Positions 2,937-47,370 of a DNA stretch of 64,000 nt are shown piece after piece; position 1 is the stretch's first letter; every line of letters begins with the position of its first letter. Origin of the DNA: Bdellovibrionales bacterium (lineage in GTDB: Bacteria; Bdellovibrionota; Bdellovibrionia; Bdellovibrionales; JAUICD01); the NCBI GenBank assembly GCA_965262715.1, contig OZ253553.1, positions 1,184,001 through 1,248,000 of the forward strand, read 5' to 3'. The position numbers were made by a program, and so were the translations under genes. The notes under the pieces were generated by a model, which made no database searches, was not told the origin of the DNA, and saw only the letters and a list, made by a program, of their open reading frames with translations.

Positions 2937-3097
2937 GTTTTCCTTAACATTATGTTAAATAAGAAGAGGTATCTGCCTTACTAAAAATAAATAGATTTTT
3001 GAGACAATGAGTATTTTATGAGAGTATTAGCCGTCATGCTCATTGTCCAAAAATGGCCAGAGGCTCGCCTCGAGAGGCCAGTTTATTTTTAGTGAAA
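2937..3097 (+). repeat. Structured repeat element, copy 1
   Basis: ttccttaacattatgttaa head; stems tactaaaaataaa/tttatttttagtg, gacaatgagtat/atgctcattgtc, tggcc...ggcca. Confidence 0.75.
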
Positions 3098-3361
3098 GCA
3101 ATTGCAGATTGATAAAACATCTGTCTCTCAACAGAACAACTTCCTCTATTTGTATCTTAATAGAATTAAAATACAACAAAAGATACCTTTAAAATAGCTA
3201 GTATATAGTAGAATAAAGTATTTTATATAATTCTGTCTCCTGAAGCATTGGCGAGAGGTCAATCAGAAGTCTGCCATAACTCTAAATTACTATCTTAGGC
3301 TAAGTTCAAATAGTAGACATGGAAATGGTTTAATTACTTTTGGATCAGCCCATGGACCGGG

Positions 3362-3410
3362 GGTGGATTCAATTCGTAAGTGCAACTCTTTTGTATTTAT
3401 AGATATTTTT
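3362..3410 (+). mobile_element. Solo IS30-family terminal repeat (left-end tip joined to right-end interior)
   Basis: ggtggattcaattcgtaagtgcaactcttttgtatttatagatattttt matches the ends of the IS30 at 5102..6439. Confidence 0.75.
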
Positions 3411-3497
3411 AAGTGCATGTTGATATTAGACTTTGTAGCATTAAAAATGCTCTGCTATCTCTCTTTGAGGGTTATTATTTAAATACTTCTTGGTAGG

Positions 3498-3923
3498 TTA
3501 AGCGGCTGTGTCAAAGTGCGACTCTATATTTAGAGATCTTAATAATTCTTGTAAAGTATTAAGTGACAAGTTTGTTTTTAAAGAAGCTTCTAATTTAGCA
3601 TAAGTTTGTTGAGTTATGCCAAGTTTTTTTGCAATTTGAGTTTGAGATAGCCTTTTTTGTTTTCTTTTTCTTTTCAAAACAATGGCTAATGATATTTGAA
3701 AATCAACCATTATTGGATAAAAATTCTTGCCCTTTCTCTGCTTAGGATAAGGGATATTAAGATTACGGTCACAACAGGAAGCCAACCATCCGTTGAGGGC
3801 TTCCGATGCATTCTCCTTTGCTTTAGTAAGAGTTTTTCCTTCAGTAAAACACCCTTCAAGTTCAGGAAAGTCAACAAGGTATGATTTATCTTTTTGTTGA
3901 GTGATACGAGTAAAATATTTCAT
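3498..3923 (-). CDS. hicB: HicB family antitoxin with C-terminal HTH
   Basis: YLVDFPELEGCFTEGKTLTKAKENASEAL HicB motif plus XRE-type HTH; overlaps hicA. Confidence 0.9.
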   Translation of the reverse strand: MKYFTRITQQKDKSYLVDFPELEGCFTEGKTLTKAKENASEALNGWLASCCDRNLNIPYPKQRKGKNFYPIMVDFQISLAIVLKRKRKQKRLSQTQIAKKLGITQQTYAKLEASLKTNLSLNTLQELLRSLNIESHFDTAA

Positions 3924-4141
3924 TTCTTTTTAATCCCTATTTTTTTTAAATCTTTCTTTTTAATCTCCGCTTCTTTTAAAATTTTGCTTTCTAATCCCTT
4001 ACCTAAGGATTTATTTCCATGGACAGGTACAGGGATTGTTTTCTTCCCTTTTGCCATAATATGGTGACTTCCTCTAGTTCTTACATGTTTCCAGTCACAT
4101 TTCTTTAACAATGCGACAATAATTCTTCCGGCTAAAGGCAT
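3920..4141 (-). CDS. hicA: HicA family mRNA interferase toxin
   Basis: RTRGSHHIM...VPVHGNKSLGKG HicA signature. Confidence 0.9.
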   Translation of the reverse strand: MPLAGRIIVALLKKCDWKHVRTRGSHHIMAKGKKTIPVPVHGNKSLGKGLESKILKEAEIKKKDLKKIGIKKK

Positions 4142-4147
4142 ATTTTT

Positions 4148-4176
4148 ATATTACAAGTTTTAATCTATATTGTCAA
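4148..4176 (-). promoter_or_regulatory. Sigma-70 promoter of hicAB
   Basis: Minus strand TTGACA-N17-TAATAT. Confidence 0.65.
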
Positions 4177-4282
4177 ATATGGAACAGCAAGTATCCAAAT
4201 AGATGAATTATCTCAGAATATCTGTTACTGAGAGTTTAATAATGAATAGAAAAAAATAAGTCATAAAGAAATTAAAAGACTA

Positions 4283-4945
4283 GTGTCAAAGGTTGTTGTT
4301 GATTGTAAAAAATTAGCAGATAACTATGTTAAAAATTGGAACCCTGTAAATAAAAAATGGCCAACAATTGAAGGAGCAGTTTATTTAAGACTTTCTGATG
4401 ACACACAAGTAGCCGTAGAACATGGATCATTGGAACAACAAATTCACATTGCCATACACGAACTACTTCTAAACATATTAAAGAAAGCAATCACTCTGCT
4501 TTAATAACATCCGGCAAGTTTAATAGTGACTTTCCATTATTGGGATTTGATATCATTAAAAATGAACATGGAGAAAGTACTGGGGTTTATAAACCAAATC
4601 GTAAGGAATTAAAGCAAGTTGAATGGATTATGAAATCTTTTCTTCATACTGATAAGTACAAAACATTGCTTAATTACTGTAAGGAAAGGAATATCAAAAA
4701 CAAAAAAAATAAAGAGCAAGAATTGATGAAAGAAAGAGATCAACTCTAGTTACTTCAAAAACAGCTTTCTAATGTACAAAGCTTTGATTTTAATGAGAAA
4801 TATCTTAAAAATATAGTCAAAGCTCTTAATTATATTCATAAAAATGACCTGGTTTCTCTTAGATCTGTCTATCATAATCTATTTCAAAAGATCATTGTTC
4901 AACCTCTGGATGAATCAAAAATACAGCTTAAATTTGTCTTCAAAG
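4283..4945 (+). pseudogene. Large serine recombinase remnant (internally deleted, with stops)
   Basis: AVYLRLSDDTQ...GSLEQQ catalytic motif; LGFD...KPNRKELKQVEWIM recombinase-domain piece; coiled-coil and LFQKIIV C-terminal piece. Confidence 0.75.
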
Positions 4946-5241
4946 TGAGCCACTTCCATCTCGACATGCTGCTATTAAACCTTGCTTGATTCCATGGCTA
5001 TGAGCTGTTCCAAAAGTTACAAGACCATTGCCAGATAAATCTAGGATAGATTGAACAGCTGCTGCATCACGTGGTGAAATTAACGATAAAATATTATTAT
5101 TCGTAACTTCAAATCGCAAGTGCAACTCTTTTGTGTTTATAGATATTTTTAAAAGTTGTATCACTTTAGGATTAATATTCCAACAAAGTTTTAATTATCA
5201 TGAAAGATTATAGTAAATTATTTAATTTGAATGAATGTATT

Positions 5242-5317
5242 TTGATGTTTATGGCAAAGTCTCGTAGTCCTCGAGCTAAAGCTCTGCGGAAGAACGATCC
5301 TTTGCCATAAACATCAA
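5242..5317. repeat. 18-bp perfect inverted repeat hairpin in the IS30 3' non-coding tail
   Basis: ttgatgtttatggcaaag ... ctttgccataaacatcaa with internal gagctaaagctc palindrome. Confidence 0.85.
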
Positions 5318-5386
5318 GCTGTCAAATAAGCATTTTCAGAAGTTATTATATATAAGTAAAATTAAATGGATAAACTATGAATAACT

Positions 5387-6340
5387 TCAGCAAACCATCT
5401 TTTGTCTATGAAACTCATTAGGAGTTAGAAAACCTAAACTCTTTCGAGGGCGATGGTTTAAAAGAGACTCAACCTTTTTTACATCCTTAGAGGTGACTTC
5501 TCTAAAATCTGTCTTCTTTGGAAAATACTGACGGATTAAACCATTCGTGTTCTCATTTAAACCTCTCTGATATGAACTGTAAGGATGTGCAAAATAAACT
5601 TTACATCCAGTATATTCACTGATCTTCTCATGACACGAAAACTCTTTACCATTATCCAAAGTCATTGTATGAACAACCTCTCCTTTAAGAGCTTTAGAAA
5701 TAGCATGAAAAACTGCCTCAGATCTCTTAGATTCTATTTTGACAATCCTCGTCTTCTTAGAACATCTATCTACCAGCGTGACTAAAGCTCCTTTATGATG
5801 TCTACCTATCATTAGATCACCTTCCCAGTCTCCTATCCGAAGCTTCTTATCTACTATCTTAGGCCTTTTATCAATGCTCACTCTATTCTTTATCTGACCC
5901 CTTTTATCAAATCTACTTGTACCATATCGCTTCTTGCGTTGCCTCTGACATCTTAAAAATTTGTAGAGATCTCCTCCTGATTGCTTATCTCCAAGAATAT
6001 GCTGATAAATACTCTCATGACTTATAGACAAACCTTCTCGTTTAAGAAAACCGGATATCTGTTCCGGACTCAAACGATCACGAAGAAACCTCTCAAGCTT
6101 ATTAATGACTTTTTGTGTTATCTTTATATGTCTATGAGAGTTTTGAAGACGATCGACTGCTTTTTCATGGGCTTGTTGAGGACGATAACCTCGCAAGCCT
6201 TTGTTACGATTCAATTCCCTATATATGGTGCTTTTATCTCGACCTACCTGAGTAGCAATTGAACTTATTGATTTTCCACTTTGCAAAAAAGCTAAAATCT
6301 GGTATCTCTCATGTTGGGTTAGATGAGTGTAATTGCTCAT
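5387..6340 (-). CDS. IS30 family DDE transposase
   Basis: N-terminal HTH; GDWEGD, TLDNGKEF, YFAHPYSSYQRGLNENTNGLIRQYFPK motifs. Confidence 0.97.
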   Translation of the reverse strand: MSNYTHLTQHERYQILAFLQSGKSISSIATQVGRDKSTIYRELNRNKGLRGYRPQQAHEKAVDRLQNSHRHIKITQKVINKLERFLRDRLSPEQISGFLKREGLSISHESIYQHILGDKQSGGDLYKFLRCQRQRKKRYGTSRFDKRGQIKNRVSIDKRPKIVDKKLRIGDWEGDLMIGRHHKGALVTLVDRCSKKTRIVKIESKRSEAVFHAISKALKGEVVHTMTLDNGKEFSCHEKISEYTGCKVYFAHPYSSYQRGLNENTNGLIRQYFPKKTDFREVTSKDVKKVESLLNHRPRKSLGFLTPNEFHRQKMVC

Positions 6341-7278
6341 GGAATACTCCTTTCATTATTTAAAGAGATTGATTAGAGTATTCCTCTAACCCGCTTTAAA
6401 TAACTATGCAAGGAGTTGCACTTGCAACTTGAATCCACCATTTACTCTTATCAACCTTCTCATGTTTAGACGAGTTATAGTAGGACCTTTTGGAAATCCA
6501 AGATTATCCAGAAAGCTTTCAAATTCACTCTCTGAAATCAGAAGACTTCTAATATTCATATCTTCCATAAAAGATAAAGTTGCTGAATATTGAGCATCTG
6601 TAACGTAAGCGTCTTTCCTAATAAGTCCTCTCAAATACTTAAATTGGCTTATATTATCAATTGTTTCTTTTTTCAAATCCTCATCATCTAATGGAAATAT
6701 TCCAACCCTATGAAAATCTTCTGGATGAGTTACTCGAGCAATGGCATAAGCCTCAAACACAAGAAAAAGTAATGGATCTGTTTTATTGGAACTTCATTCT
6801 GATGATTGATTCAAATTTGTGTTTACCCTATCTCGAGCTCTTAAATAACGATCATTTGCATTATCAATATCAGCAGTATCCGTTTCAATATGCTCAATGT
6901 CAATCCAGTCTATCTTTCCAGATTTAGCCAGTTCTGTGATTTTTTGAGCATCAGATTGCTCAGAGACAATCGTCCCTTGATAGTCTTCAAGCAATTGATT
7001 TAAATAAGCCGCAGTCTCTTCTGTTTCATAATTTCTTTCAAAAACATCCACAACTTCATTAGGCTCAATAGTTAGATGTTCTGTAAATAAAGTATATACT
7101 TGCCGATCACCTATCTGAATGACTTCAACACCTTCAATGTCTGAGTTAGAAAAAATACAAGCTTCTGTCTGAGCAAGCACTGACTGATAACTCAACAAAC
7201 TCACCATATAAAAATTTCCTAGAACTCATAGTAAATACCTCCTTTATCTTGCATGCTGTATAATATTACAAATTATAA

Positions 7279-7293
7279 GCAATATACATACCA
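7279..7293 (-). promoter_or_regulatory. Sigma-54-like promoter of the disrupted secreted-protein gene
   Basis: Minus strand TGGTATGTATATTGC (-24 GG / -12 GC). Confidence 0.5.
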
Positions 7294-7375
7294 AGTAAAT
7301 GAATGTAATAATTTTCTTAAACAAATATGATCTTATAAGTTTATAATACCTTAAGGTGCCATGAACCATAATTAC

Positions 7376-7495
7376 TTCAAAAGATCATTGTCCAACCTCT
7401 GGATGAATTAGAAATACAGCTTAAATTTGTCTTCAAAGAAGACCCTTCAATCTCTCGCATGTATGAAGACTTTTATTGTATATCGAGAAAGCTAA
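7376..7495 (+). pseudogene. Second copy of the serine recombinase 3' end
   Basis: Near-identical to 4882-4945; its continuation also matches 21077-21130. Confidence 0.7.
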
Positions 7496-7503
7496 AAAAA
7501 ATA

Positions 7504-7745
7504 TTTCCTTAACATTATGTAAAAAAAGAAGAGTATCTGTCTACTCAAAATAAACAGATGGCAAGGATAAAGTTTCCCTAACATTGTGTTAAGAAATAAG
7601 GATATCCTCCCTACTAAAATGCATTAGGCTTTCTAGGCAGTAAGCTATTTGCCGACAGCGTAAGCCTGTCGGGCTTACTGCCAGAAAGTGACCAGAGGTC
7701 AGATGCATTTTAGGGAAACAGAAGGCTGGTTTATTTTGAGTGAGA
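7504..7745 (+). repeat. Structured repeat element, nested pair (inner copy 7572..7719)
   Basis: Inner copy bounded by gtttccctaa/ttagggaaac; stems ctaaaatgcat/atgcattttag, ctttctaggcagtaagc/gcttactgccagaaag; outer stem actcaaaataaac/gtttattttgagt. Confidence 0.8.
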
Positions 7746-8192
7746 TTGGTGGACGCTGGCCTTCTATGGGCAAAAAACGTACTCAAACAGAAATATCTCA
7801 AAAATTACCTCTCAATAAGAGAAATTGCAAAGAAATTTTCGTGCTCAAAAACCAAAATCAGAGACCTGCTTTTAAAATACGAAATCCCATTAAGAAAACC
7901 TTCAAAATACCATCAAGGATATGATAGTCGCACTTATGGTAAGAAAAAGGTGAATGGTAAAACAGTAGATCACAAAAGAGAATTAAAAACCATTGAAACC
8001 ATCAAAGAGCTTTATCTCAAAGATATCAATCCGAATATGATAGCTAAAGTATTAAGCACTATGAAAATACCCACTAAACAGCAAAAAACAAGCTGGCATC
8101 ATCATACAATTATCAATCTTCTTAAAAGAGAAGGTCTTTATAAGCAAGAAAAAACCAACAAGTTAGGAGGGAATAATGGAAACATTTATTAA
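7740..8192 (+). CDS. HTH plus recombinase-domain-like small protein of an integrative element
   Basis: LSIREIAKKFSCSKTKIR HTH; YGKKKVNGKTV...IAKVLSTMKIPTK...SWHHHTIINLL resembles the LSR recombinase domain. Confidence 0.6.
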   Translation: MRLVDAGLLWAKNVLKQKYLKNYLSIREIAKKFSCSKTKIRDLLLKYEIPLRKPSKYHQGYDSRTYGKKKVNGKTVDHKRELKTIETIKELYLKDINPNMIAKVLSTMKIPTKQQKTSWHHHTIINLLKREGLYKQEKTNKLGGNNGNIY

Positions 8193-8352
8193 ATTTATTA
8201 TTATAAATACATCATTGATATTTGGATCAGGTTATTGTGCTAAGGAGCTTTTATTCAAAGTTGAAAAACTAGCTACTAATAGGATAGAAAAAGGGCTTTC
8301 ATCATCAGAGCAATTTGCTAGAAAACTCACTAACACAAGATTATCTTTCTGA
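8176..8352 (+). CDS. Small hypothetical protein (58 aa, not in ORF track)
   Basis: AGGAGG RBS then METFIKFIIINTSLIFGSGYCAKELL... Confidence 0.4.
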   Translation: METFIKFIIINTSLIFGSGYCAKELLFKVEKLATNRIEKGLSSSEQFARKLTNTRLSF

Positions 8353-8596
8353 TGATTTAAAAAATAAGAATGGCACTTATTATAATAATAAATAGAGATA
8401 GATTTGGGTTTTTATTAACTTGTATAGTGTTTTAAAAGCTCTTGTATTTTTTATATATCTTGGAAAAGTTATCGATACTATTTAATAGTTTTAAAAATTC
8501 ATTATTCATGCCCTTAACTAAGCCAATCAATACATACACATACATTAAACAGAGTTGGATATGCCTAAAAGACGGGACATTCGTTTTGTCTCTAAA

Positions 8597-8642
8597 GTTC
8601 CATCTTGTCGGTATATATTGACAAATACCTACATTTTGGAAC
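8597..8642 (+). promoter_or_regulatory. abiE promoter with inverted-repeat operator
   Basis: gttccatcttgtcggtat / atacctacattttggaac imperfect IR around TTGACA (8618-8623); AbiEi proteins autoregulate via promoter IRs. Confidence 0.5.
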
Positions 8643-8653
8643 ATTATTATTCT

Positions 8654-9253
8654 ATGGAGAGCCAGAGCCAAATAATCATAGATCTTGCTCATTCCCGTGG
8701 GCTTATCCGTCCTCGAGACCTTACTGAGCGTGGATTGCCTCGTGTTATTCTCACTCGTCTAGTACGTCAAGGGTTACTCATTCGAGTGGGAAGGGGCCTT
8801 TATGCTTTACCCAATAGACCTGTGACAGAAAATATGTCTTTAGCTGAAGTTTCTCGTAAATATCCACAAGGTATAATATGCTTGTTGTCAGCATTACGTG
8901 TACATGAACTAACCACCCAATCCCCGTTTAAAGTTTGGTTAGCTATTCCTAACAAAGCCAGATCTCCAAAAATGGAATATCCACCTCTACATATTGTGCG
9001 TTTTTCTGGAGCAGCTCTCATTGAAGGTATTGATGAACATCAGATTGAGAGTGTTTCTGTACGTATTACCAACATCGCTCGTACAGTAGCTGATTGTTTC
9101 AAGTACAGAAATAAAATTGGCCTTGATGTTGCGCTTGAGGCTTTAGAAGAAGCATGGAATAGTAAACGCACTAATATGGATGAACTTTGGCATTATGCCT
9201 CAGTATGTCGAGTAGCTAATATTATGCGTCCTTACTTAGAGAGTCTAACATGA
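8654..9253 (+). CDS. abiEi: Type IV TA antitoxin AbiEi
   Basis: wHTH (LTRLVRQGLLIRVGRGLY), IICLLSAL, ARTVADCFKYRNKIGLDVALEAL; likely start 8654 (track ORF opens at 8555). Confidence 0.9.
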   Translation: MESQSQIIIDLAHSRGLIRPRDLTERGLPRVILTRLVRQGLLIRVGRGLYALPNRPVTENMSLAEVSRKYPQGIICLLSALRVHELTTQSPFKVWLAIPNKARSPKMEYPPLHIVRFSGAALIEGIDEHQIESVSVRITNIARTVADCFKYRNKIGLDVALEALEEAWNSKRTNMDELWHYASVCRVANIMRPYLESLT

Positions 9254-10167
9254 GTGAAAGAAATATAGCTGCTTCAGTAAGGAATCGATTACTCAATCTC
9301 GCAAAAAAAACCAAACAAGACTTTAATTTACTAGTTACTAAGTATTGTATTGAACGCTTGATGTATCGTCTCAGCATTTCTGAATATGCTGAACATTTTT
9401 TGTTAAAAGGAGCTTTACTATTCGACTTATGGTTCGACATTCCTTATCGTTCCACAAGAGACGCAGATTTTCTGGGTCTTGGCTCTTCTGACTTATCAGT
9501 TATCGAAGATATTTTTAAGAAAATCTGTAATCTTAACTCTGAAGATGGAGTGATATTTAAATCTGAAACTGTAAAGGTTAAAGCCATTCGCAAAGAAGCT
9601 AACTATCCAGGGTTGCGAGTCACTTTTCTGGCAATGATTGAAAACATGAAATGTTCAATTCAAGTTGATATAGGTTTTGGAGATATAGTTACACCTAGCC
9701 CCGAGGACATTGAATATCCTACAATTCTGAATGAATTTGCAGCACCTAGATTACGAGCTTATTCATGTTATACTGTAGTTGCAGAAAAACTTGAGGCTCT
9801 AACAAAACTTGGAATAGCTAATAGTCGTATGAAAGACTACTTTGATCTATGGATTCTGTCTCGTCACACAAACTTTGACGGTAATATACTCCGCAACTCT
9901 ATTCATGCAACATTTACACGTCGAAAAACAGAGATACCCAATGAACTACCTTTTGGGTTAACTGAGGCCTTTGCTCAGGATATTCAAAAGCAGACGCAAT
10001 GGTCTGCTTTTTTACAAAAAAACTCTCTTGAATCATTATCTCTAAAAGATATTGTACACTTTCTTTCTGGCTTCTTACAGCCAGTAATCCAGTCAGCGAG
10101 TACAAGGGGCTTATTTGATTTCTTTTGGACAAATGGTGGTCCGTGGTCACCTAAATCATATAATTAA
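9250..10167 (+). CDS. abiEii: Type IV TA toxin AbiEii nucleotidyltransferase
   Basis: LLKGALL, RSTRDADF, AEKLEA, NSRMKDYFDL motifs; ATGA overlap with abiEi. Confidence 0.92.
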   Translation: MSERNIAASVRNRLLNLAKKTKQDFNLLVTKYCIERLMYRLSISEYAEHFLLKGALLFDLWFDIPYRSTRDADFLGLGSSDLSVIEDIFKKICNLNSEDGVIFKSETVKVKAIRKEANYPGLRVTFLAMIENMKCSIQVDIGFGDIVTPSPEDIEYPTILNEFAAPRLRAYSCYTVVAEKLEALTKLGIANSRMKDYFDLWILSRHTNFDGNILRNSIHATFTRRKTEIPNELPFGLTEAFAQDIQKQTQWSAFLQKNSLESLSLKDIVHFLSGFLQPVIQSASTRGLFDFFWTNGGPWSPKSYN

Positions 10168-10417
10168 ATTGACACAATCAAATTAAATTCTCTAAGATTA
10201 TCTATTTAGTGAACAATTGAAGTATTGTTTGAATAGTTACTGGCTTTAAGTCTTCAATTTTATGAATGAGATGGGTGCAACTTTGTTTGATTGAATCTCT
10301 GTCTATTAAAGTAAATGCCGTTTCATTCTACTTCAAACTCTGAGCAAATTAAAAGCACAACTTATGATTCACTCTTTTGAAAAATAACACTCGTTTAAAG
10401 CAAGAAAAAGGTTCGAA

Positions 10418-10621
10418 TTGGTGTCACTGGTGGACGCTACACCTCAATATGTAGAAAACGTGCTCAATCCACAGTTTTCAATGAAATCAACTATTTCCAT
10501 CGCATCCTCATCTATCTCTGAAAGCGTACTCAAACAAAAATATCTTAAAAATCACCTCTCAATAAGAGAAATTGCTAAGAAGTTTTCGTTCTCAAAAACC
10601 AAAGTCAGAAGCCTACTTTAA
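10418..10621 (+). pseudogene. Truncated paralog of the 7740..8192 HTH/recombinase-domain gene
   Basis: VLKQKYLKNHLSIREIAKKFSFSKTKVR near-identical to the 7740 ORF; preceded by the same tggtggacgct junction. Confidence 0.65.
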
Positions 10622-13433: not shown

Positions 13434-13560
13434 ACATTTCTGAAAAAATTTTCTAGATTTCACCAGAAGTGTGATATTTTATCGTAAGCCTTTATCTGCT
13501 GAGAAGTTTATTTCAGAGGATAAAAATTTCGGTATAAATTTCAGTATAAAAGGAAAGAAA

Positions 13561-13595
13561 AAAGTCGCCAGAGGCGAGATGCATTTTAGTGAGAT
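13561..13595 (+). repeat. Structured repeat element, 3' partial copy
   Basis: aaagtcgccagaggcgagatgcattttagtga identical to 21253-21284. Confidence 0.8.
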
Positions 13596-13630
13596 TGGCG
13601 GAGTAGCTGAAGTATTGGATATCTCCACTT

Positions 13631-14076: not shown

Positions 14077-15076
14077 ATGAAAGTTATGAAACTTTTTAGG
14101 AATACTTTGGTTTTTAGTTTATTTATTTATAGCTTTGCTTTACCTGCTTTTGCTCAAGAGGCAATAGATTTGGAATTAGCCAAACTGATGGAAGCACAAA
14201 ATGTCGGTGAATCAAACATAAGAACAAGAGAATTACATGTTTTACCCATGTCCAATGATTTGGTGTATCTTGGAGACTTTTTCAATGAAATGTATTCATT
14301 ATATAATGGTAGAGGGCGACCCCCATATGATTATGATGTGAACAATGATCGTATTATCACTTATCGTATTTATGATGTTTCTTTCTTAGCAAATGGACAG
14401 CAGAAGTCTTTGATACTTGGCATTGAAGAGAATAAGGAACATTCTTCTGCAGAAATACTTCAAAAAGTCAGAGCTATTTTGGGCAAAATGCCGGAGAGAT
14501 GGTTAAGTAAAGTGCATTTTATTAGGATAAAAAGGGAAACTAATCCTAACAGAAAACATGGTCAGTTTAAATTAACTGGAGGGGCTCCTTTTGCTTCTTC
14601 TCGTGGTTGTAATGCATGCAGCTTTTGGCAACAAATGTTTCCTCAAGTATCAAAGGGTTAGCCATACAGGTAGAAGTAGAATGGAATTTCATCATTACAA
14701 CACAATTCAAGTCAATTTCGATTATTCTCAAAGGGAATCTGCTGAGTATAGAGATCTTGTTACTAAAACAATGCAACATGAATTGGGACATTTGATTGCA
14801 AGACACTCTGAGTATGGGTATTCTAGCCAAGAGTGGTACGATGCTATCGTAAAAGATGGTACATTTACTTATGGAAATATTAGAACTTCTGAAGATGATA
14901 GACATTATGATATTGAGCAAGACTTTGCTGAAACAGTGGCTATTTACTTAACAACATATAGAGGATTTTACAATGACCCATACATCAACACGCTAGAGCC
15001 TGCAACAGACTATCGCCATCGATTTGCTATTTTGGATAGAATTATGGGCATAGATGAAATGAAGAATGCCTTATAA
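14077..15076 (+). pseudogene. Secreted zinc metallopeptidase-like gene, frameshifted (14077..14661 + 14591..15076)
   Basis: Signal peptide ending AFA; second frame has MQHELGHLIA...EQDFAE; paralog of 34170..35009. Confidence 0.7.
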
Positions 15077-15094: not shown

Positions 15095-15168
15095 GTCGAG
15101 GGGAATAGGGGAATTTCACCCCTAAACCCTCACAGAATCGTGCGTGACAGTCTCCCGTCACATGGCTC
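15095..15168 (-). ncRNA. Group II intron 3' remnant (domains V-VI)
   Basis: Minus strand GAGCCATGTGACGGGAGACTGTCACGCACGATTC (DV-like) then AGGGGTGAAATTCCCCT...CTCGAC (DVI and 3' end). Confidence 0.85.
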
Positions 15169-15320
15169 TTATCATTAAAACCCTTGCCATGACAACACAA
15201 GCTTCCGCAAGTCTCTTTAGCCATTTGCAAAACCTTCTAAACCTTCTTCTCATTCAAATTAAATAATTTACTATAATCTTTCATGATAATTAAAACTTTG
15301 TTGAAATATTAATCTTAAAA

Positions 15321-20931: not shown

Positions 20932-21140
20932 ACACCTTCATCTTTTCATACAAACTTCTATTTTTTTTATTTCTTCAAGGTATTCATGCATTTTAAGATT
21001 TTATGATTTTTAACTTAGGTTTTAGCAAAAAAAGAAATTTTTAAATACTATTTTTTGAATATTTAAATATTGTGAAAAGAAGACCCTTCAAGTTCTCGCA
21101 TGTATGAGGACTTTTATTGCACATTGTGAAAAAAGATAAA

Positions 21141-21287
21141 TTTTCCCTAACATCATGTTAAAAAACGAAGCATATCTTCCCTACTAAAATGTATCTTCTT
21201 TCTAGGTAGTCAGCATTTTATTGAAGGCGTGAGCCTTCAGGCTGACTGCCAGAAAGTCGCCAGAGGCGAGATGCATTTTAGTGAAAA
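21141..21287 (+). repeat. Structured repeat element, copy abutting the tRNA-Ala CCA end
   Basis: ttttccctaacatcatgttaa...stems...ttagtgaaaa; preceded by a recombinase 3'-end homolog. Confidence 0.85.
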
Positions 21288-21363
<76 letters not shown>

Positions 21364-39288: not shown

Positions 39289-39308
39289 TTAGGTCACTTT
39301 AGCTATTT

Positions 39309-39719: not shown

Positions 39720-39977
39720 TTATAAATCGATTATCATTATCTTCTTTTTCTTTATAAGCTCTATATATACTCGATAATATTTATTTAGTCTTAAGGCTCT
39801 ATATCCTCGCCACTTGCCTTTAAGCTGATGATCTTTGTACCCTTTAGTTTTCAGTGTTGTTATTTTGTCATTTTTTGTTTGAATATCTTTTAAAAATTTT
39901 AGATACAACCTTTTTATATCTAAAGGCAACTTCTCAAGTTGTTTTCTTATTTTCTTATCTTGTATAACGTATATCAT
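39720..39977 (-). CDS. RelE/HigB/YafQ superfamily toxin
   Basis: YKDHQLKGKWRGYRALRLNKYYRV; toxin-first arrangement. Confidence 0.8.
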   Translation of the reverse strand: MIYVIQDKKIRKQLEKLPLDIKRLYLKFLKDIQTKNDKITTLKTKGYKDHQLKGKWRGYRALRLNKYYRVYIELIKKKKIMIIDL

Positions 39978-40053
39978 ACTTTATATCTTCTCTAAAGCAA
40001 ACACCAACAATGAATTGTATGATTATTGAGCGAATTATCATAATATTTACATA

Positions 40054-41235
40054 TTAAATGTGGTGCTGGAGGGCTTCGTGAGTGCGAGGATCTTTTAAAG
40101 GAACAATTGGATGCTTGCTTAAAAAACGCATGACAAAGAATAAAAATAAACTCAAACCGCCTAAAAACATGGCCAGTTCAGTAAATCCAAAAACAATATG
40201 TCCTTCATTGAAATTAGGATAAACAAGCCAATAAATATCTACATACTGCATCACTAAAATCAAAATGGCAATAAGGCTTAACCAATCTACATTTCTCTTT
40301 GCAGCCCTTGGAAGCAGTGCCAAGAAAGGCACAATGAATTTAAAAAGCAATAAAGAGTAACTGATGGCCATCCACCCTCCATGCGCTCTATGTATAAAGA
40401 AAATAGTCTCTTCTGGAAGATTGGCATACCAAATCAACATAAACTGCGAAAAAGCAATGTAAGCAAAAAAGATAGTGAAAGCAAAAAGTAGTTTGCCTAA
40501 GTCATGAATGTGATTTTGATTGACCAAATTATCTAAAAGCCCTCTCTTCATCATCCATACTGTAAGCACAATCAAAAAGGCTAAGGCAGATTGAAAAAGT
40601 CCTGCAAAACAATACACACCAAAAATAGTGGAAAACCAATGTGGGTGTAAGCTCATCAAATAATCTACACTAAAAAGTGAATAAGAAATGGCAAAGAAAA
40701 GTAAAAACCCAATGGACCATCTTCTACTTTTATGAGTTCTATTCTCATCTCCATCCTCATCCTGCTTTAAAGAATGACCTACAATAATTTTTGCCAGTAG
40801 TATCCAGCCACCGAAAAATATCACTGTTCTGATAACGAAAAAAGGTAAATTCAAGTAAGGTTCTTTTCTCTGTAAAATAGGGTCACCCGCCACCACTTCT
40901 TCGTGCAGCCACTCAAATAAACTATCCCCTCCAAAAAGGATCAATATCAATCCCAATAAAAAAGCTATTGGTAAAAAAGAGGTCAACCCTTCAGCTATCC
41001 GACGAACTGTAACGCTCCAGCCCGCATTAACCGTATGCTGAATGGCTACAAAAAACAATCCCCCTAAAGATAAACTCACAAAATAAAAAAAGCTGGTTAA
41101 AAAAGCCGGCCAAAAAGTATAAACACGCCCTGAAATATGTAAAGCAAATGCAGTTATAGCAACTAGTAAAGAAAGAAAAATAAACCATTTTAAATAACGA
41201 GGGAAATGCATTGGCTTTGGGTTTAAAGTAGACAT
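40054..41235 (-). CDS. actF: Alternative complex III subunit ActF
   Basis: Polytopic membrane protein; AGWSVTVRRIAE, HWFSTIFG, HDLGKLLF, SQFMLIWYANLPEE. Confidence 0.9.
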   Translation of the reverse strand: MSTLNPKPMHFPRYLKWFIFLSLLVAITAFALHISGRVYTFWPAFLTSFFYFVSLSLGGLFFVAIQHTVNAGWSVTVRRIAEGLTSFLPIAFLLGLILILFGGDSLFEWLHEEVVAGDPILQRKEPYLNLPFFVIRTVIFFGGWILLAKIIVGHSLKQDEDGDENRTHKSRRWSIGFLLFFAISYSLFSVDYLMSLHPHWFSTIFGVYCFAGLFQSALAFLIVLTVWMMKRGLLDNLVNQNHIHDLGKLLFAFTIFFAYIAFSQFMLIWYANLPEETIFFIHRAHGGWMAISYSLLLFKFIVPFLALLPRAAKRNVDWLSLIAILILVMQYVDIYWLVYPNFNEGHIVFGFTELAMFLGGLSLFLFFVMRFLSKHPIVPLKDPRTHEALQHHI

Positions 41236-41241
41236 ATTTTA

Positions 41242-41877
41242 TTATCCCTCTTCCTCTTTCTTTTCACTATCATCTTTGTTTTCTTCTACCGGTGGTTGCG
41301 CCTCAGGTGTCTCTTCTTCCGCATGAGCTTGCAAGCGACGTATAAAGTGAACTAAGGCCCAACGGTCTTCTTCATTTGGAATCTGAGAAGCAAAACTACC
41401 CATAAGCCCTCTGCCTACAACAATCATGTGGTAAATACCACCATCTGCCCAATCTTTGATCTTTTGACTAGCTAAGGATGGAGGCTTTAATACAGTCTTG
41501 GCAGCTACAGGTCCATCCCCAATACCCGTTGTACCATGACAAACTCCACAATAAATATAATACATCTTTTGCCCACGCTGTAAGGTCTCAAAGTTTCCAT
41601 ATAACGGGTTAAATAATAACTGCTCAGCTTCTTCAGATGTCTTAATATCATAAGGCCTGTGCCCTTTAGGTATAGCTCCTTCAGGAGGCCTTCTCATTGC
41701 AAAAGATCCAGGTTTTTTCTCATCGTAATCCTGTGGCTCTATGGCTGGAGATTGCATCATATCTTGGATCAACTCAATTTGAGGATCTCGCTTTGAACCG
41801 CACCCACTCATTATTAATGATAAGATCATTATCACAAATAACTGCTTTTCAAGATAACTCATCTTCTTCTCACTCAA
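41242..41877 (-). CDS. actE: Alternative complex III subunit ActE (monoheme cytochrome c lipoprotein)
   Basis: Lipobox MSGC; CGVCH heme motif; DRWALVHFIR. Confidence 0.9.
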   Translation of the reverse strand: MSEKKMSYLEKQLFVIMILSLIMSGCGSKRDPQIELIQDMMQSPAIEPQDYDEKKPGSFAMRRPPEGAIPKGHRPYDIKTSEEAEQLLFNPLYGNFETLQRGQKMYYIYCGVCHGTTGIGDGPVAAKTVLKPPSLASQKIKDWADGGIYHMIVVGRGLMGSFASQIPNEEDRWALVHFIRRLQAHAEEETPEAQPPVEENKDDSEKKEEEG

Positions 41878-42329
41878 AAAGGTTTATATCTCATTAAAAT
41901 CTTGTAACTTTAAATACATCTACTAGTGACATGAATTTTTATATAGATCATACTAAAATCATATTGTTTCGATAAGCAAGTAAAATCAGCCAGAAATTGT
42001 CGGTTGTAAATAAAAAATAGTTTTTATTAGGACAATCTAAGATGTGTTTTTATCCTTGATTTCTTTAAGATTTTATACGAGAATGCCACCACAAACTATG
42101 GCAGCAGCTTTATAAATGTGAAATTATCAGAAGATTTTTTCTCTCCTTCTTAAAAATCTCTTTGGAAGAAAAGTGTAACCTATGTGCTGAAAACACACTA
42201 TAGCCTATCTGCCTAGAACGGATTTCAGCACACTCTACGAACCCTTTACAGCCTAAACAATATGACTTTCTTCTAACTCCACTTTTAAGATAAGAATACA
42301 TCGTCTTTAATCTTCTTATCCTTTATATC

Positions 42330-42701
42330 TTAAGAAGCATAAAAGCAAAGTATTTCATTGTTACCTGATTGGTTACAGGACATACCAGAATATGGATCAA
42401 AGCCTTCTGGAAACACTGTAAGATTATTAAATAGAATGACAGATGTTTGATCGTTTTTTATATGTTTTATGTTCATGACTTCTGTAAGATTTCTACCACG
42501 AAAATCATAGACGCTAGTAGTTTTATATCTTCTGACATCATTAATCAAAAAGGGAGAAGACGTGGGAGGGCCACCCCATATACCTTCATAGTGCTGTTCT
42601 GAATAATTATATCCAGAATAAGCAGATACTTTCGATACAGTAAAAATTGTCATTAATAAGCAACAAGCGGCTATACTATAAAAAACATGGCTCAGATTCA
42701 T
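42330..42701 (-). CDS. Secreted hypothetical protein inserted between actD and actE
   Basis: GGAGG RBS, signal peptide ending VSA. Confidence 0.6.
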   Translation of the reverse strand: MNLSHVFYSIAACCLLMTIFTVSKVSAYSGYNYSEQHYEGIWGGPPTSSPFLINDVRRYKTTSVYDFRGRNLTEVMNIKHIKNDQTSVILFNNLTVFPEGFDPYSGMSCNQSGNNEILCFYAS

Positions 42702-43084
42702 AAATACCTCCTTAAGTTCCAGAAAAGCCCTTTAAATAATATGTTCTTATTTCATAAAACCCTTTAAAAGTCAAGGTTCTAGCTTTTATAAGAATTTATA
42801 TGTTTTATAATTTATTTTAATGAAAAGGTATTTATTGAACGTTAACCATCTATTCATTACGTTTTGACAATAAAGAAGGTTTCTTGAAAAATATTCACGA
42901 AAACCAATTGCCGGTTTGCTTTGACTGCCAGCTTCCTAGGAAAACCAAGAACAAATTATATCTTTTCTTTTGGTTCATAACACTTTAAGGAGTTAAATTT
43001 TACGATTAGTAATGTCTTTTTATTTACTTTTTAATCGGGCAAATCAGATAGCCAGCAAATAGCACTGGTAACAAAAGCCCGCTT

Positions 43085-43654
43085 TTAGAAGTTTTGGTAG
43101 AACTCTACACCGCTAGATTTTAAACCTTCTATATGTTTTTTCGATTGCTCACCTTCATACTTAGGGTCATTTTCTGAAATATAAAGAGCAAATTTATGAC
43201 AACTCAAATCATTATTTAAAATAGGAGGGTTGATTTGAGGAAGTCTGCAAAGCAACAAAACAGCCCCAAAACTTGCTAGGCCAGCAAATAAAACTGTTAT
43301 TTCGAAAATAATAGGTACAAATGCAGGTAAAGAGAAAAAAGGCTTACCCGCAATATTTAAAGGATAATCCACAGCAGACGTCCACCACTGAAACCAAGTT
43401 GCAAAAACACAGCCTGTCAAACCTGCAAAAAAAGTAAACCAAGGAATAATAGACCGCTTTAAACCCATCACATCGTCCATACCATGAATGGGAAAAGGTG
43501 ATATAGTATCAAATTTCCTATACCCTGCTAAGTAAGTTGCCTTTGCTGCTTCTAATAAATCATCTTCACTATCAAAATAACCAACAACACCACCTGTCTT
43601 TGTAGTTTCTTTTTTTTCATCACAACAAAAAAGAGCACCTAAAAACTTCAACAT
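43085..43654 (-). CDS. actD: Alternative complex III subunit ActD (DUF3341)
   Basis: SPFPIHG, DYPLNIAGKP, PAFVPIIFEITVL. Confidence 0.9.
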   Translation of the reverse strand: MLKFLGALFCCDEKKETTKTGGVVGYFDSEDDLLEAAKATYLAGYRKFDTISPFPIHGMDDVMGLKRSIIPWFTFFAGLTGCVFATWFQWWTSAVDYPLNIAGKPFFSLPAFVPIIFEITVLFAGLASFGAVLLLCRLPQINPPILNNDLSCHKFALYISENDPKYEGEQSKKHIEGLKSSGVEFYQNF

Positions 43655-43717
43655 AATTTGTCTTTCTCCTATTTCTTCTATTTAATCCCTTTTATTTTAA
43701 TATATCTTCATAGAAGT

Positions 43718-44629
43718 TTATGAAGTTCTCTTTAATATGCTGCACAATTTTTTATCTATATTACCTAATAACTCAATATGAGGAATTTTTAAATTACTTA
43801 GGACTTTATTAAATTTTTTAAACCCATCCCTACCTCTTAACTCAACCCATTCAATATTCGACTTATCTAGCCGTTTTTTAATTTTCTCAGAAAGTTTATC
43901 AGCCACAAAAACTTCACTACCTCGTGCAAAAGCTGCATCTGCGCTTTCTGGATTTCCTTTTCCCATTAGCTTAACTTCACATTTATAATGTTTGCTATCT
44001 TTAATCAAATAAAAATCTACCTCTCTTTCAAAATCATTATCATTATCCTTTCCCCTTTTTATTTTTGACTTATAGCATTCTTTAGGAACTTCATATAACA
44101 TGCATAATGTCTGCATTAATGGCTTTTCAACTCTTTTGCCTGCCATACTCCAAAGGCCACCTCTCAATGCAGATCTCTTTACAGCTAAGGCATTTATAAC
44201 AATCAAACTTTCACTTATATTAAGATCAACACTAACACCTTTAAATTTAACGGTGAGAATTAAATCTAAATCATTTTCAGTATCAATTAATCTTTTAATA
44301 GACTGATAAATTAATTTATAATTGTCATTAGCAGCATCTATAACGATCTCTTTTGTCGAAGAATTAAACATATTATGAATAGTTTTTTTGTTTAAACCTG
44401 AATTAATAGCAATATCCTTTGTTGGTAGGCTAGGATCTAAAAATGATTTTTTATACCAATCAACTGTAATATTTTTGTTCTTTAATTTGGCACTCACGAT
44501 ATCTTTAAAAAAACTAACTGCAAATTCTAAAAATCTTAAATTAATGAGAGTAATCACTTCGATTCGATAGTCCTCACCTTTAATTAGTTTTCTAATAATG
44601 TTTCTTACAACTTCTGTTGTTATAGTCAT
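43718..44629 (-). CDS. CfrBI-family type II restriction endonuclease
   Basis: RGGLWSMAGKRVEKPL, REVDF...CEVKLMGKGNPESADA (PD-(D/E)xK). Confidence 0.8.
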   Translation of the reverse strand: MTITTEVVRNIIRKLIKGEDYRIEVITLINLRFLEFAVSFFKDIVSAKLKNKNITVDWYKKSFLDPSLPTKDIAINSGLNKKTIHNMFNSSTKEIVIDAANDNYKLIYQSIKRLIDTENDLDLILTVKFKGVSVDLNISESLIVINALAVKRSALRGGLWSMAGKRVEKPLMQTLCMLYEVPKECYKSKIKRGKDNDNDFEREVDFYLIKDSKHYKCEVKLMGKGNPESADAAFARGSEVFVADKLSEKIKKRLDKSNIEWVELRGRDGFKKFNKVLSNLKIPHIELLGNIDKKLCSILKRTS

Positions 44630-46032
44630 ATTTTTGTTTTAGTTAGAGTTATAAAACTTTTAATATCTATAACTCTCGATTTGGTTTCCTGTTTAATTTT
44701 ATTTAATAAATCAAGATTTCTTATCAGATTTTCCTTCATGCGATGTACATACTTTACTTCTTTTTCAACTAAAAAGAAATACCGGTTTAAACTGGCTGCT
44801 GAACGGCCTAATGTTCCACTTCCTGCAAAAGGATCAAATATTAAATCATTCACAAAAGAATAATACTTAATAATCCTATCACATAATTGCAAAGGAAATA
44901 CTGCACTATGAACTTTATCAAATGTGGGATCAATATACCAAATATTTGTTGTTTCATATTTACCTAACACTTTACTTTCTTCTACTTTGTTTCGATTATA
45001 TTGGTGCATGTTCCAGTCAATTAATTTATCTGTTTTTTTCCTATAAACCATTACTATTTCTGAGATAGCATTTGGTTTATAGCCTAGTGGCTTTCGATGT
45101 TGTAAAAATCCTGCATTTCTATTTTTTACACTAGCTTCTGGTTTAACCCATACAATATCATCAATGAATTCCCATCCCATTTTGACTAATAATGGATGAA
45201 TATCATAAGGAATAGGATATCTTTTACTTGCATAAGCACGGCTAAGTCTTGGAATAATAATGGGTGAAGTATTTAGAATAAAAAATCGACCTTCTTTAGT
45301 CACTCGATGTACTTGTTTAAAAACATCTTCTAAAAATTTTAAATATTCATCATAACTTTGATAAATTGAATAATCCCTCGCATTATAATAAGGTGGTGAA
45401 GTAAAAGTCAGGTGGATGGATTCATCAGGTACATATTTCAATGTTTCTATGACATCGCCTTGCACAACTGTATTTTTAAGATAGCTTAAACATTCATCGT
45501 GCTTTTTGCTATTTTTCAATCTATGTTTTGTCCCATTTATTTCTCTGCTAATGATCTCTCTAATTAATTCATTTGGATGTTCTTGCAATTCTAAAATCTT
45601 ACTTCTGACTTGAATATTACTTGAAAAAGCAAAAAGCCCTCTGATAGCTTGCATAACTACTTTTGGATCTTTATCAGATAAGAGCCTCGTTAAAAGAGGA
45701 ATAGTTTTTTCATTCCTTAGTCTTCCAATAGCAGAAACAGCTTCACGTCTAACCTCTGTACTTCCATCTTTTTGAGCAAGATGGGCAAAAGTATCAAGTA
45801 AGGAAATATCGCCAATTTTAGCAAGGTTTTTTGTAGTAAGAGATCTAATCGTTTCATTATTATGAACTAATAAATTGAGTAGTTGTTCTTTATTATATCC
45901 ACTTTTCAGTCGCCCTAACTTCTCTAATCCATAAATAATAGTGCTGTTATTTTGGTTTTGTAAAAAAGACAAAAGAGCCTTTGTGTTACCTTTTAAATCA
46001 TTAATTTGTTTTTTATTAACTGTCTGATACAT
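44626..46032 (-). CDS. HEAT-repeat / N4-N6 DNA methyltransferase fusion
   Basis: N-terminal HEAT-like repeats (EVRREAVSAIGRL, DKDPKVVMQAIRGL); TSPPY, HSAVFP, DPFAGSGT. Confidence 0.85.
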   Translation of the reverse strand: MYQTVNKKQINDLKGNTKALLSFLQNQNNSTIIYGLEKLGRLKSGYNKEQLLNLLVHNNETIRSLTTKNLAKIGDISLLDTFAHLAQKDGSTEVRREAVSAIGRLRNEKTIPLLTRLLSDKDPKVVMQAIRGLFAFSSNIQVRSKILELQEHPNELIREIISREINGTKHRLKNSKKHDECLSYLKNTVVQGDVIETLKYVPDESIHLTFTSPPYYNARDYSIYQSYDEYLKFLEDVFKQVHRVTKEGRFFILNTSPIIIPRLSRAYASKRYPIPYDIHPLLVKMGWEFIDDIVWVKPEASVKNRNAGFLQHRKPLGYKPNAISEIVMVYRKKTDKLIDWNMHQYNRNKVEESKVLGKYETTNIWYIDPTFDKVHSAVFPLQLCDRIIKYYSFVNDLIFDPFAGSGTLGRSAASLNRYFFLVEKEVKYVHRMKENLIRNLDLLNKIKQETKSRVIDIKSFITLTKTKI

Positions 46033-46107
46033 TTTAAAAACCCATTTTTATAATATACTTAACTCTTTTTTTATTTCTATAAAGATGTGTATCTTCTCGT
46101 AAGATAA

Positions 46108-46329
46108 TCATTTTTTACGATAAACTCCTGTTCTTACTTTTTCTAAAAATCCTTCTTCACAAAGAGTTCTTATAGCTCTACCAGGGTCTCTAAGTGGTTT
46201 ACCCGTTCTTTTCTTATATTCTTCTGTAGCCCAATCCGCGACTGTAGAAGTTTCTATATTCTCTTTTGGTCTTATTTCAAAAAACTCCTTAATCAATTCA
46301 GGTTGTGTAATAGTATTCGTTTTTATCAT
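46108..46329 (-). CDS. Small winged-helix protein, possibly the truncated N-terminus of a nuclease
   Basis: RDPGRAIRTLCEEGFLEKVRTGVYR wHTH ending abruptly. Confidence 0.5.
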   Translation of the reverse strand: MIKTNTITQPELIKEFFEIRPKENIETSTVADWATEEYKKRTGKPLRDPGRAIRTLCEEGFLEKVRTGVYRKK

Positions 46330-46337
46330 AACTTACC

Positions 46338-47186
46338 TTAATAAGTACTTGCTTCTTTTTTTAGTCTATCAACCGCTACTTTGCAATAAGCTTTATCCAT
46401 CTCCACTCCAATACCTTTTCTATTATACATACTAGAAGCTATCAATGTTGAACCACTGCCCATAAACGGGTCTAAAACTGTATCACCTACAAAACTAAAT
46501 AATTTTATACACCTCTTTGGCAGCTCTACTGGAAAAGCTGCTGGATGTCCTCCGGCACCTTTTTTGCTCTGCCCTGAAAAAGTCCAAACACCATTCGTCC
46601 AATCCATAAACTCCTGTCTGGTGATATCATTCTCTTTCTTTTCTTTCTTCTTCCATTGATTCTTATACAGAACAACAATGACCTCAACAGGAGCAATCAC
46701 ATAAGGGGCAGAAGCTGACATCCAAGAACCCCAAGCTGTCCTTCGAGAGATATTCCCTTCATTCCATATAATCGTAGAGTGATACTGCCATCCGACTTGC
46801 TTTGCTAAAGATGTGATATCAGCACAAACTGACTGCTGGCCTCCCTTATTTTTATCAAGAGGTATATTTAAACATAACCTCCCATCGTCTTTAGCTAAAT
46901 CATAACACTTTGTAAGCCACTTTTTTGTAAACTCCAAATAATCTTCATAAGGTAAAACATCATTGTGTAAATTATAATGGATATCTACATTGTAAGGAGG
47001 TGATGTGATCATTAAATCCACTGATGACTTTGGAAGACTTGTGATTTTAAGAATATCCTCATTGTAAATAGAAGTATGATCACACTCAAAGTAGCACTTT
47101 ATATTTTTTTTCCTTCGTCTAATGGTTTTTATATTTAAAGGATTTTCTAAAATAGCTTCCATATTTTTATTTTCCTTCTGTTTCAC
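46338..47186 (-). CDS. Beta-class N4/N6 DNA methyltransferase
   Basis: TSPPY, HPAAFP, LDPFMGSGST; alternative start at 47162. Confidence 0.92.
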   Translation of the reverse strand: MKQKENKNMEAILENPLNIKTIRRRKKNIKCYFECDHTSIYNEDILKITSLPKSSVDLMITSPPYNVDIHYNLHNDVLPYEDYLEFTKKWLTKCYDLAKDDGRLCLNIPLDKNKGGQQSVCADITSLAKQVGWQYHSTIIWNEGNISRRTAWGSWMSASAPYVIAPVEVIVVLYKNQWKKKEKKENDITRQEFMDWTNGVWTFSGQSKKGAGGHPAAFPVELPKRCIKLFSFVGDTVLDPFMGSGSTLIASSMYNRKGIGVEMDKAYCKVAVDRLKKEASTY

Positions 47187-47370
47187 TCAAAATACACCAG
47201 CCTCTCGAGGCGAACCTCTCGAGGCGAGCCTCTAAAGGCAAGCCTCTGCCTGTTTTCTAGCATTGCCTGCAAAGGCTCTGCGCCTTTGGCAAAATGGGCA
47301 ATGCCTAGAAAATATGTGCATTTTGAGTAGAAAGAATCTCCTCATTATTTAACATCATGTTAAGGAAAAT
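47180..47370 (-). repeat. Structured repeat element, copy at the actC / R-M junction
   Basis: Minus strand ttttccttaacatgatgttaa...actcaaaat...stems...attttgagtgaaac; contains a 14-bp tandem expansion (cctctcgaggcga). Confidence 0.8.

Follow-up and report, generated by a model that had tools for sequence, protein, structure and literature searches.

A repeat of about 150 bases occurs at five loci in 64,000 nucleotides of a Bdellovibrionales genome (lineage JAUICD01; assembly GCA_965262715.1, contig OZ253553.1, positions 1,184,001 to 1,248,000 of the forward strand; called the window below), and these loci raise the question what kind of element the repeat is and how it reaches new sites. An earlier note, made from the letters of the window, had proposed an undescribed structured RNA or a transposable element of the miniature inverted-repeat type (MITE) tied to the acquisition of cargo genes by serine recombinases. 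The copies in the source genome (G000, 2.94 Mb) and in a sister genome (G001, 2.38 of 2.57 Mb read as sequence, 188 kb lying outside the scope) belong to a mobile, folded and polar element, and its right end is the active end. We favour, with a probability of roughly 45 %, a non-autonomous repeat that moves as folded plus-strand single-stranded DNA (ssDNA) and is joined by its 3' end through a putative enzyme.

Fold and distribution of the repeat

Read from 5' to 3', the repeat starts with a variable purine-rich leader, followed by a near-invariant head of 12 nucleotides (nt), an unpaired spacer of degenerate sequence (about 25-30 nt), the helices P1, P2 and P3 and a tail of about five bases. 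The closing stem P1 (14 base pairs, bp) encloses two arms: P2 is long and has a bulged A as well as a loop on one side only, and P3 is a short hairpin capped by an AGA loop. The fold is an asymmetric three-way junction of Y shape with an unpaired head; the conserved head sequence and the stem around one long arm and one short hairpin had been recognised in the earlier note, as had the compensatory nature of the base changes. In an alignment of 47 copies, 39 of them from the sister genome and one locus entered twice, 26 of the 39 base pairs were changed on both sides. Paired cells made up 97.3 % of the alignment compared to 81.4 % in shuffles, and a covariation of 0.484 stood against 0.189 in shuffles and at most 0.083 in slid controls, where the signal collapsed; these pairing and covariation figures overstate independence because the copies are related and the structure was derived from the same alignment. 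Folding z-scores were -5.6 to -8.2 for three full copies and -6.7 for the first 150 nt of a longer copy (copy E, Table 1). Each helix has few alleles, which are mosaic across copies and combined non-randomly.

Other details of the first description were corrected by the genome-wide counts. Terminal inverted repeats proved to be a coincidence: a perfect 9-bp pair was present in 6 of 133 unique copies of the source genome and in 2 of 492 of the sister genome, and head position 6 did not covary with the tail, the tail base covarying with its inner P1 partner. The palindrome described for the head has not been kept: where TGTTAA has its second T, 48 % of the copies have T and 45 % A. Loops said to be GNRA follow a wider GNNA rule (GNRA 75 versus GNYA 19 in the source genome, 275 versus 165 in the sister genome). 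The distal loop has the form of the DNA mini-hairpin GCGNNAGC, which is of GNNA type, in 398 of the 492 sister-genome copies, and 135 of these are not GNRA. The head, which we take to resemble one arm of a dif site, was rejected as dif on its spacing, and a search revealed no clear dif. Inspection by eye also led to the rejection of a hammerhead core and of a retron layout.

A profile built from genome-wide matches (nhmmer) gave 471 matches in the source genome and none in the reversed-genome control, in which the exact 12-nt head was also absent (0 versus 305 occurrences). Among the 260 near-full copies 209 sequences are distinct, and identity to the nearest neighbour has a median of 0.90. 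In the sister genome 1,218 matches were obtained, 668 of them near full length, and the repeat makes up about 2 % of the source genome and 6 % of the sister genome sequence read. A covariance model matched 3 of 151 genomes of the same order (G000, G001 and a third assembly, G004) and, across the phylum, 1 of 151, the source genome itself; outside the family no genome matched among those searched. The matches in G004 were confined to three contigs (C1, C4, C11), which are 85-91 % identical to and colinear with the source genome, and 12 other contigs of this assembly had no comparable likeness in the first 20 kb or less of each. Because the three contigs resemble the source genome and differ from the remaining assembly as sampled, they are probably mis-binned DNA from a close sister of the source organism. 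Pattern scans of viral and metagenome contigs had 0 matches, and blastn revealed no plasmid match and, in 50,697 phage records, only two chance matches of 22 nt. With nothing at gathering score for the window in Rfam, nothing over copy D at E-values up to 10, no matching end among the insertion sequences (IS) examined and strong covariation, the earlier view of an undescribed structured element was borne out; no account of the family was found in the open literature, supplements being outside the scope. Related repeats, for example at 189709, 238836, 999062, 1382431 and 858648 of the source genome, have the same P1 and tail but differ in head and interior; the model thus covers only part of the family.

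Copies avoid long open reading frames (ORFs; 3 of 471 matches in the source genome and 4 of 1218 in the sister genome lie within one) and have no preferred orientation to the flanking genes (49/41/40/29 among 159 loci). A domesticated host element, e.g., a terminator, an mRNA stabiliser or a nucleoid-protein site, spread by ordinary recombination with its fold selected for host function, would suit this avoidance, the copies set tightly against gene ends and the positions that were kept while the allele was replaced. The missing orientation preference, the nested, truncated and concatenated debris, the copies inside other repeats and beside CRISPR repeats, and the restriction to one family among those searched make this reading very unlikely. 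At the CRISPR locus (476.7-490.7 kb of the source genome) three copies lie each between a repeat and its 24-nt duplicate, at the cas locus or array ends, where they resemble an oversized spacer.

The right end and the proposed route of movement

The two ends of the repeat behave differently. The left end is loose and lies about 5-45 nt upstream of the 12-nt head; the position of the right end is set by its distance from P1, 0-11 nt past the stem and most often 5-7 nt (75 of 165). Right ends no more than 10 nt from a convergent stop codon were found at 13 of 136 loci in the source genome (1.5 expected) and at 34 of 456 in the sister genome (4.1 expected), and heads within 25 nt of an upstream stop at 4 of 136 and 2 of 456, so that no pile-up is visible at the left end. 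CCA ends of tRNAs are adjoined by right ends in 5 of 34 cases (0.13 expected) and 4 of 29 cases (0.36 expected), respectively, and further right ends stand directly before ribosome-binding sites and -35-like boxes. Extra bases at the right end are rich in A and C in the sister genome (199 of 270), less so in the source genome (30 of 46).

The junctions between copies have the same polarity, with extra tails, tandem duplications and nested insertions all beginning at the right end. Tandem units of upstream flank and element have their boundary at the tail, and such duplications were in excess in the source genome (40 of 213, with 1-5 in controls). A second tail follows 37 of 217 copies in the source genome and 66 of 243 in the sister genome; 21 of the 37 and 41 of the 66 are of a different allele and have no upstream partner. 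Of 1,282 tail ends in the sister genome, 487 continue directly as another copy, most commonly (97 of the 487) where the target offers the last three bases of the tail, and 76 of 77 head-to-reverse-tail junctions are at one base. What appeared at first as 106 inverted interiors in this genome consisted mostly of such head-to-reverse-tail junctions, the true inversions numbering 2 and 1. At 858.2-861.2 kb of the source genome an identical unit of 431 bp is repeated seven times; every unit contains two elements and a 5' fragment of tRNA-Ser, and the boundary lies at the tail of a divergent copy.

Movement is documented by comparison with the sister contigs, in which one copy, with about 270 nt of extra 5' DNA, has no counterpart in the source genome; at a further site an inverted pair is missing, and alleles are exchanged at positions that were kept. 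Upstream of recG the tail replaces the ribosome-binding site in the source genome. Source and sister genome are only about 68 % identical at the nucleotide level, therefore no usable empty sites were available between them. At paralogous empty sites either a short stretch (up to about 25 nt) has been replaced or 20-31 nt have been duplicated, and in no case was the target duplication of fixed length; 56 of 211 loci were candidates, many of them tandem or nested and not counted as clean. An apparent target duplication of 14-22 nt in the sister genome was dropped as shuffled controls gave similar results. The flanks have no consensus at the ends and no conserved target tetranucleotide. Four sequencing runs over a 19.5-kb multi-copy stretch yielded no usable empty alleles: one run matched long pieces without differences, the others gave fragments or repeat noise. 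A MITE of the classical kind, moved by a DDE transposase of the host, would agree with the size and copy number and with the presence of IS1634 and IS256 in both hosts. The lack of a conserved terminal inverted repeat and of a fixed target duplication, together with inspected IS ends unlike those of the repeat and no matching transposase, leaves this part of the earlier proposal barely credible.

For the favoured route we infer a DNA intermediate, a nick, a ratchet and a head-binding protein. A nick or the stop of an exonuclease a few bases 3' of P1 would create a free 3' end, while the mobile plus-strand DNA would be protected by the GCGNNAGC mini-hairpins. The free end may gain A or C bases and would join other DNA via 0-4 matching bases, host replication or repair completing the joining. 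Joining downstream would delete DNA and joining upstream would duplicate it; joining to other copies would give tail concatemers and mosaic alleles, and joining at distant sites new copies. Repeated downstream events under selection would walk the right end to the next essential signal, be it a stop codon, a tRNA end, a ribosome-binding site or a -35 box. The head would be bound by a putative protein that sets the left end loosely.

Much of the polarity is also shared by a bacterial element resembling short interspersed nuclear elements (SINEs), a structured RNA copied by a reverse transcriptase (RT) that is primed at nicks or RNA ends and produces tail concatemers by template jumping. The fixed right and variable left end, 5'-truncated copies, A/C-rich extras and foreign tails would follow from such a route, as would tails adjoining mature 3' and 5' ends of tRNAs; the source genome has two RTs, one in a group II intron and one retron-like, and GNRA is the majority loop. 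The sister genome with its far higher number of copies has neither an RT match nor an intron remnant in 2.38 Mb, and a pile-up at stop codons is not a signature of RNA ends. G-U or G-T wobbles account for 3.5 % of the predicted pairs in the source genome and 2.2 % in the sister genome, low shares for a structured RNA. According to PMC13037366, the motif GCGNNAGC forms a DNA mini-hairpin of unusual stability, is weaker in RNA and occurs at the priming sites of ssDNA phages. Loop and wobble statistics lean towards ssDNA rather than RNA as the moving form, many GCGNNAGC loops not being GNRA and wobble pairs being few; the absence of RT traces from the sister genome points the same way. An RT from outside the host is a possible source for the SINE-like route, which we regard as unlikely.

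The search for a mobilising enzyme returned no member of the usual families from the sister genome. In the part that was read, RVT_1 gave no match (0 candidates), tblastn with the RTs of the source genome found nothing, a group II intron remnant was absent, and no match was obtained for Y1_Tnp, IS110, TnpB, Rep_trans, relaxase or the archaeo-eukaryotic primase (AEP), the last being rejected as a candidate with 0 of 5 genomes. IS110 recombinases (0 matches), Rep_trans and relaxases are lacking in both hosts. A search for Y2_Tnp had 0 of 5 genomes with a control that gave no signal either. PF07282 matched only in frames of 1,343 and 1,365 amino acids (aa), which are too long for TnpB. The source genome encodes the two RTs and one IS200-like gene. 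Its retron-like RT (2650522-2652294, 590 aa, with a long N-terminal domain, beside tRNA-Asp) is absent from the sister genome; group II intron sequences occur as a 3' fragment in the window (15100-15170, minus strand; Rfam RF00029), as a longer intron with an RT ORF in the vicinity of 1.928-1.930 Mb and as other fragments. A non-autonomous element of the HUH type (IS91 rolling circle, IS200/IS605 peel-and-paste or REPIN/RAYT), its transposase lost or unrecognised, has to be weighed here as well. The single-strand fold, the one active end and the capture of upstream flank recall the one-ended transposition outlined for IS801 (PMC3189936), the tandem units with flanks and the nested insertions recall the REPIN clusters described in PMC3116915, and the 76 junctions at one base would fit. 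The absence of Y1_Tnp from the sister genome and of Rep_trans and relaxases from both hosts, an imprecise right end and the missing target tetranucleotide render this origin quite unlikely.

The two hosts have in common a small resolvase, IS1634, IS256, Rpn nucleases, four-helix-bundle genes, Cas1 and two Xer-like recombinases. By eye, the flanks of IS1634, IS256, IS30, IS3, IS481 and IS1595 have no end like that of the repeat, and IS5 is absent from the sister genome. The small resolvase was rejected as mobiliser, having flanks of its own without element ends. Rpn nucleases were discarded with 16 matches in an element-free genome (G003) and a copy upstream of 0 of the 36 genes in the source genome, and the four-helix-bundle genes with 19 matches in G004, nearly all, among the matches listed, on element-free contigs. 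Tyrosine recombinases number only two per host, and both proteins of the sister genome scored far under the TIGR02249 cut-off, hence neither is an integron integrase. The Xer-like pair is present in each of the hosts and absent from the two element-free small genomes; judged by this distribution, the pair remains a candidate and is the sole one that fits the small comparison set. One is a conserved tyrosine recombinase of 185 aa with the catalytic domain only (892897-893454 in the source genome, 2047789-2048352 in the sister genome); one XerD-like gene exists besides.

Several observations weigh against the transfer of the repeat as ssDNA. No enzyme was pinned down and no intermediate observed in this analysis of genome sequences. 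A/C-rich extensions and an end placed by its distance from a stem are also compatible with the trimming and tailing of RNA. Most loops of either genome are of the GNRA class, and GCGNNAGC is in the minority in the source genome, where GCGNNAGC proper occurs in only 33 of 133 copies and the looser form RYGNNARY in 64 more. A last base A or C was found in 115 of 128 cases in the sister genome and 10 of 20 in the source genome, a bias clear only in the former; conversely, the excess of duplications is absent from the sister genome (36 of 243, with 16-26 in controls). Its 76 identical head-to-reverse-tail junctions may descend from one founder. All counts are counts of loci and are inflated by common ancestry. 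No clear bias for a replication strand was found: the ratio of 104:68 in the source genome is near the gene bias of 531:404, and the sister genome has no usable skew. GC skew is broken into many segments in the source genome and absent in the sister genome, which suggests heavy rearrangement. A still wider proposal, that the repeat represents a new class of elements without transposase, integrase or RT of a known family, an ssDNA defined by its structure, with host enzymes or an unrecognised protein joining its 3' end, that removes intergenic DNA in a ratchet, takes small upstream genes along and has helped to scramble the chromosome, appears doubtful.

Copies in the window and the question of cargo

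The profile had six matches in the window, all at the positions given in the earlier note, and none in the reversed-genome control. The five loci (Table 1), the nesting of one copy in another, the contact with the CCA of a tRNA and the position of a copy at the start of a restriction-modification (R-M) insert between actC and actD were confirmed. In copy E the head follows the stop codon of actC by 15 nt, and the 3' end immediately precedes the ribosome-binding site of the first R-M methylase. An element-free paralogous junction to copy B is located near 1161545 of the source genome.

Table 1 Copies of the repeat and neighbouring features in the window
Feature	Position	Strand	Remark
Copy A, full length, extra 14-nt hairpin unit in the short arm	2939..3100	+	nhmmer, folding
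Serine-recombinase gene-end remnant motif upstream of copy B	7440..7480	+	comparable motif at roughly 21080-21120, before copy D
Copy B, outer element, 5' part (head, spacer, P1 5' strand)	7504..7558	+	P1 strand pairs with outer tail 7723-7746
Leader carried with inner copy B	7559..7572	+	like leaders precede other genome copies
Copy B, inner element, full length	7573..7721	+	3' end joined into short-hairpin loop of outer element
Copy B, outer tail	7723..7746	+	adjoins tRNA-end-like att sequence starting at 7747
Small ORF, Recombinase domain (PF07508, E 1e-5)	7740..8192	+	downstream neighbour of copy B, outside the repeat
Copy C, 5'-truncated tail (short hairpin, P1 3' strand)	13560..13595	+	adjoins tRNA-end-like sequence at 13596
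Copy D, full length	21142..21287	+	3' end adjoins CCA of convergent tRNA-Ala
tRNA-Ala(TGC)	21288..21363	-	boundary where copy D stops
R-M insert between actC and actD (two N6/N4 methylases, CfrBI-like nuclease)	43718..47186	-	neighbour of copy E
Copy E, full length with extra hairpin units	47178..47368	-

Copies B and D had been said to follow the 3' end of a serine-recombinase gene. The window contains no intact recombinase, and the motif upstream of both copies is no more than a remnant. At a paralogous site without the element the motif runs in frame into a small ORF whose paralogue in the window has the Recombinase domain (PF07508); for this reason the motif is probably the end of the body of a large serine recombinase. 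The idea of an element tied to serine-recombinase islands, where it marks or drives the acquisition of cargo, draws on the position of copies B and D behind the motif, on the att-like ends adjoined by copies B and C, and on three of five motif matches that are followed by a copy. At the actC/actD junction of the sister genome a decayed head opens a different R-M insert (728074-730137), which is flanked by a 63-nt direct repeat derived from the end of actC. Non-conserved genes of the sister genome have a copy nearby more often than conserved ones (334 of 942 versus 188 of 785), the reverse of the source genome (175 of 1342 other genes versus 143 of 842 conserved genes), and 10 of 11 four-helix-bundle genes of the sister genome have a same-strand copy just downstream. 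Genome-wide the copies are dispersed, the very finding that the earlier note had named as refuting a recombinase link: 5 of 471 matches, about 1 % of the copies, lie within 1 kb of the seven listed serine-recombinase genes or remnants. The large serine recombinase of the source genome has no match in the sister genome, the common small resolvase has its own flanks, junction B exists without an element, and only 11 of 139 and 5 of 60 segments flanked by direct repeats contain an element inside the repeat boundaries. As a general model the recombinase-island idea is largely refuted and highly improbable; local associations stood, at the motif and at the actC/actD head. They fit the habit of the right end to rest at tRNA ends, att sites and gene signals. 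Given the decayed head at the R-M insert and the copies beside four-helix-bundle genes, occasional carriage of an upstream gene is possible, and would not define the family.

Arrays of a 7-nt repeat interleaved with truncated heads flank the multi-copy four-helix-bundle gene throughout the sister genome. Fragments at 4283-4962 of the window resemble a broken large serine recombinase by an N-terminal Y-x-R-x-S motif and have no Pfam or NCBIfam match; the island around them comprises a HicB-like gene, IS30, AbiEi/AbiEii, a BsuBI-type R-M pair and RhuM. Two overlapping ORFs in different frames at 14077-15076 look like one frameshifted gene, the second being a weak metallopeptidase match.

Relation to known systems

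How small structured bacterial repeats, e.g., bcr1, move without clear ends or a partner enzyme has to our knowledge been a gap of long standing. The present family offers hundreds of junctions with readable polarity in a host without the usual enzyme families tested, therefore the list of candidate proteins is short and two intermediates, DNA and RNA, are directly testable. If the ratchet operates, it would replace native terminators and ribosome-binding sites and open a route to regulatory change.

Systems defined by an enzyme are the more distant ones. Integron attC sites require an integrase that the sister genome lacks, and the copies are dispersed without a cassette array; the bridge RNA of IS110 requires a recombinase missing from both genomes. 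IS200/IS605 ends and omega-RNA depend on TnpA(Y1) and TnpB, equally missing from the sister genome, and IS200/IS605 elements have a conserved left target motif. SINEs and target-primed reverse transcription are characterised by 3'-anchored polarity, 5' truncation, variable duplication or deletion and extra bases at the 3' junction. These traits are shared by the repeat; it differs in the absence of an RT from the host with most copies and is known here from DNA alone.

The likeness to phage mini-hairpins is one of motif only: the GCGNNAGC consensus of the 398 distal loops includes the AA and TT forms reported for phages G4 and St-1/alpha3 (PMC13037366), whereas blastn had no match of note in the phage records. 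Miniature relatives of IS91 and IS801 share one essential end, a variable other end and the capture of upstream flank; by the description in PMC3189936, IS801 needs an intact right end and tetranucleotide boundaries, while the right end of the repeat varies over 0-11 nt. REPINs, as characterised in PMC3116915, are likewise hairpin-forming extragenic repeats in hundreds of copies, with tandem units that include flanks and insertions into or beside copies. They consist of two inverted REP units in one hairpin; the present repeat is asymmetric, and the sister genome has no Y1/RAYT gene. The bcr1 repeat of the Bacillus cereus group, reported to be transcribed, is about 155 bp long, dispersed and variable in position among strains, has a branched fold kept by compensatory change and is treated as non-autonomous (PMC3184786). 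The two are likened by description, not by kinship: bcr1 has 5-bp direct repeats, unlike the present family with no fixed duplication, and, going by that account, the 40-nt unpaired head, the one active and imprecise end, the tail concatemers and the far higher copy number set the latter apart. Among small structured bacterial repeats the combination of copy number, allele mosaicism, a single imprecise active end and no matched enzyme is new and unusual. In size, fold and clustering the repeat works most like bcr1 and the REPINs and in polarity like IS801, and it lacks a defining trait of each.

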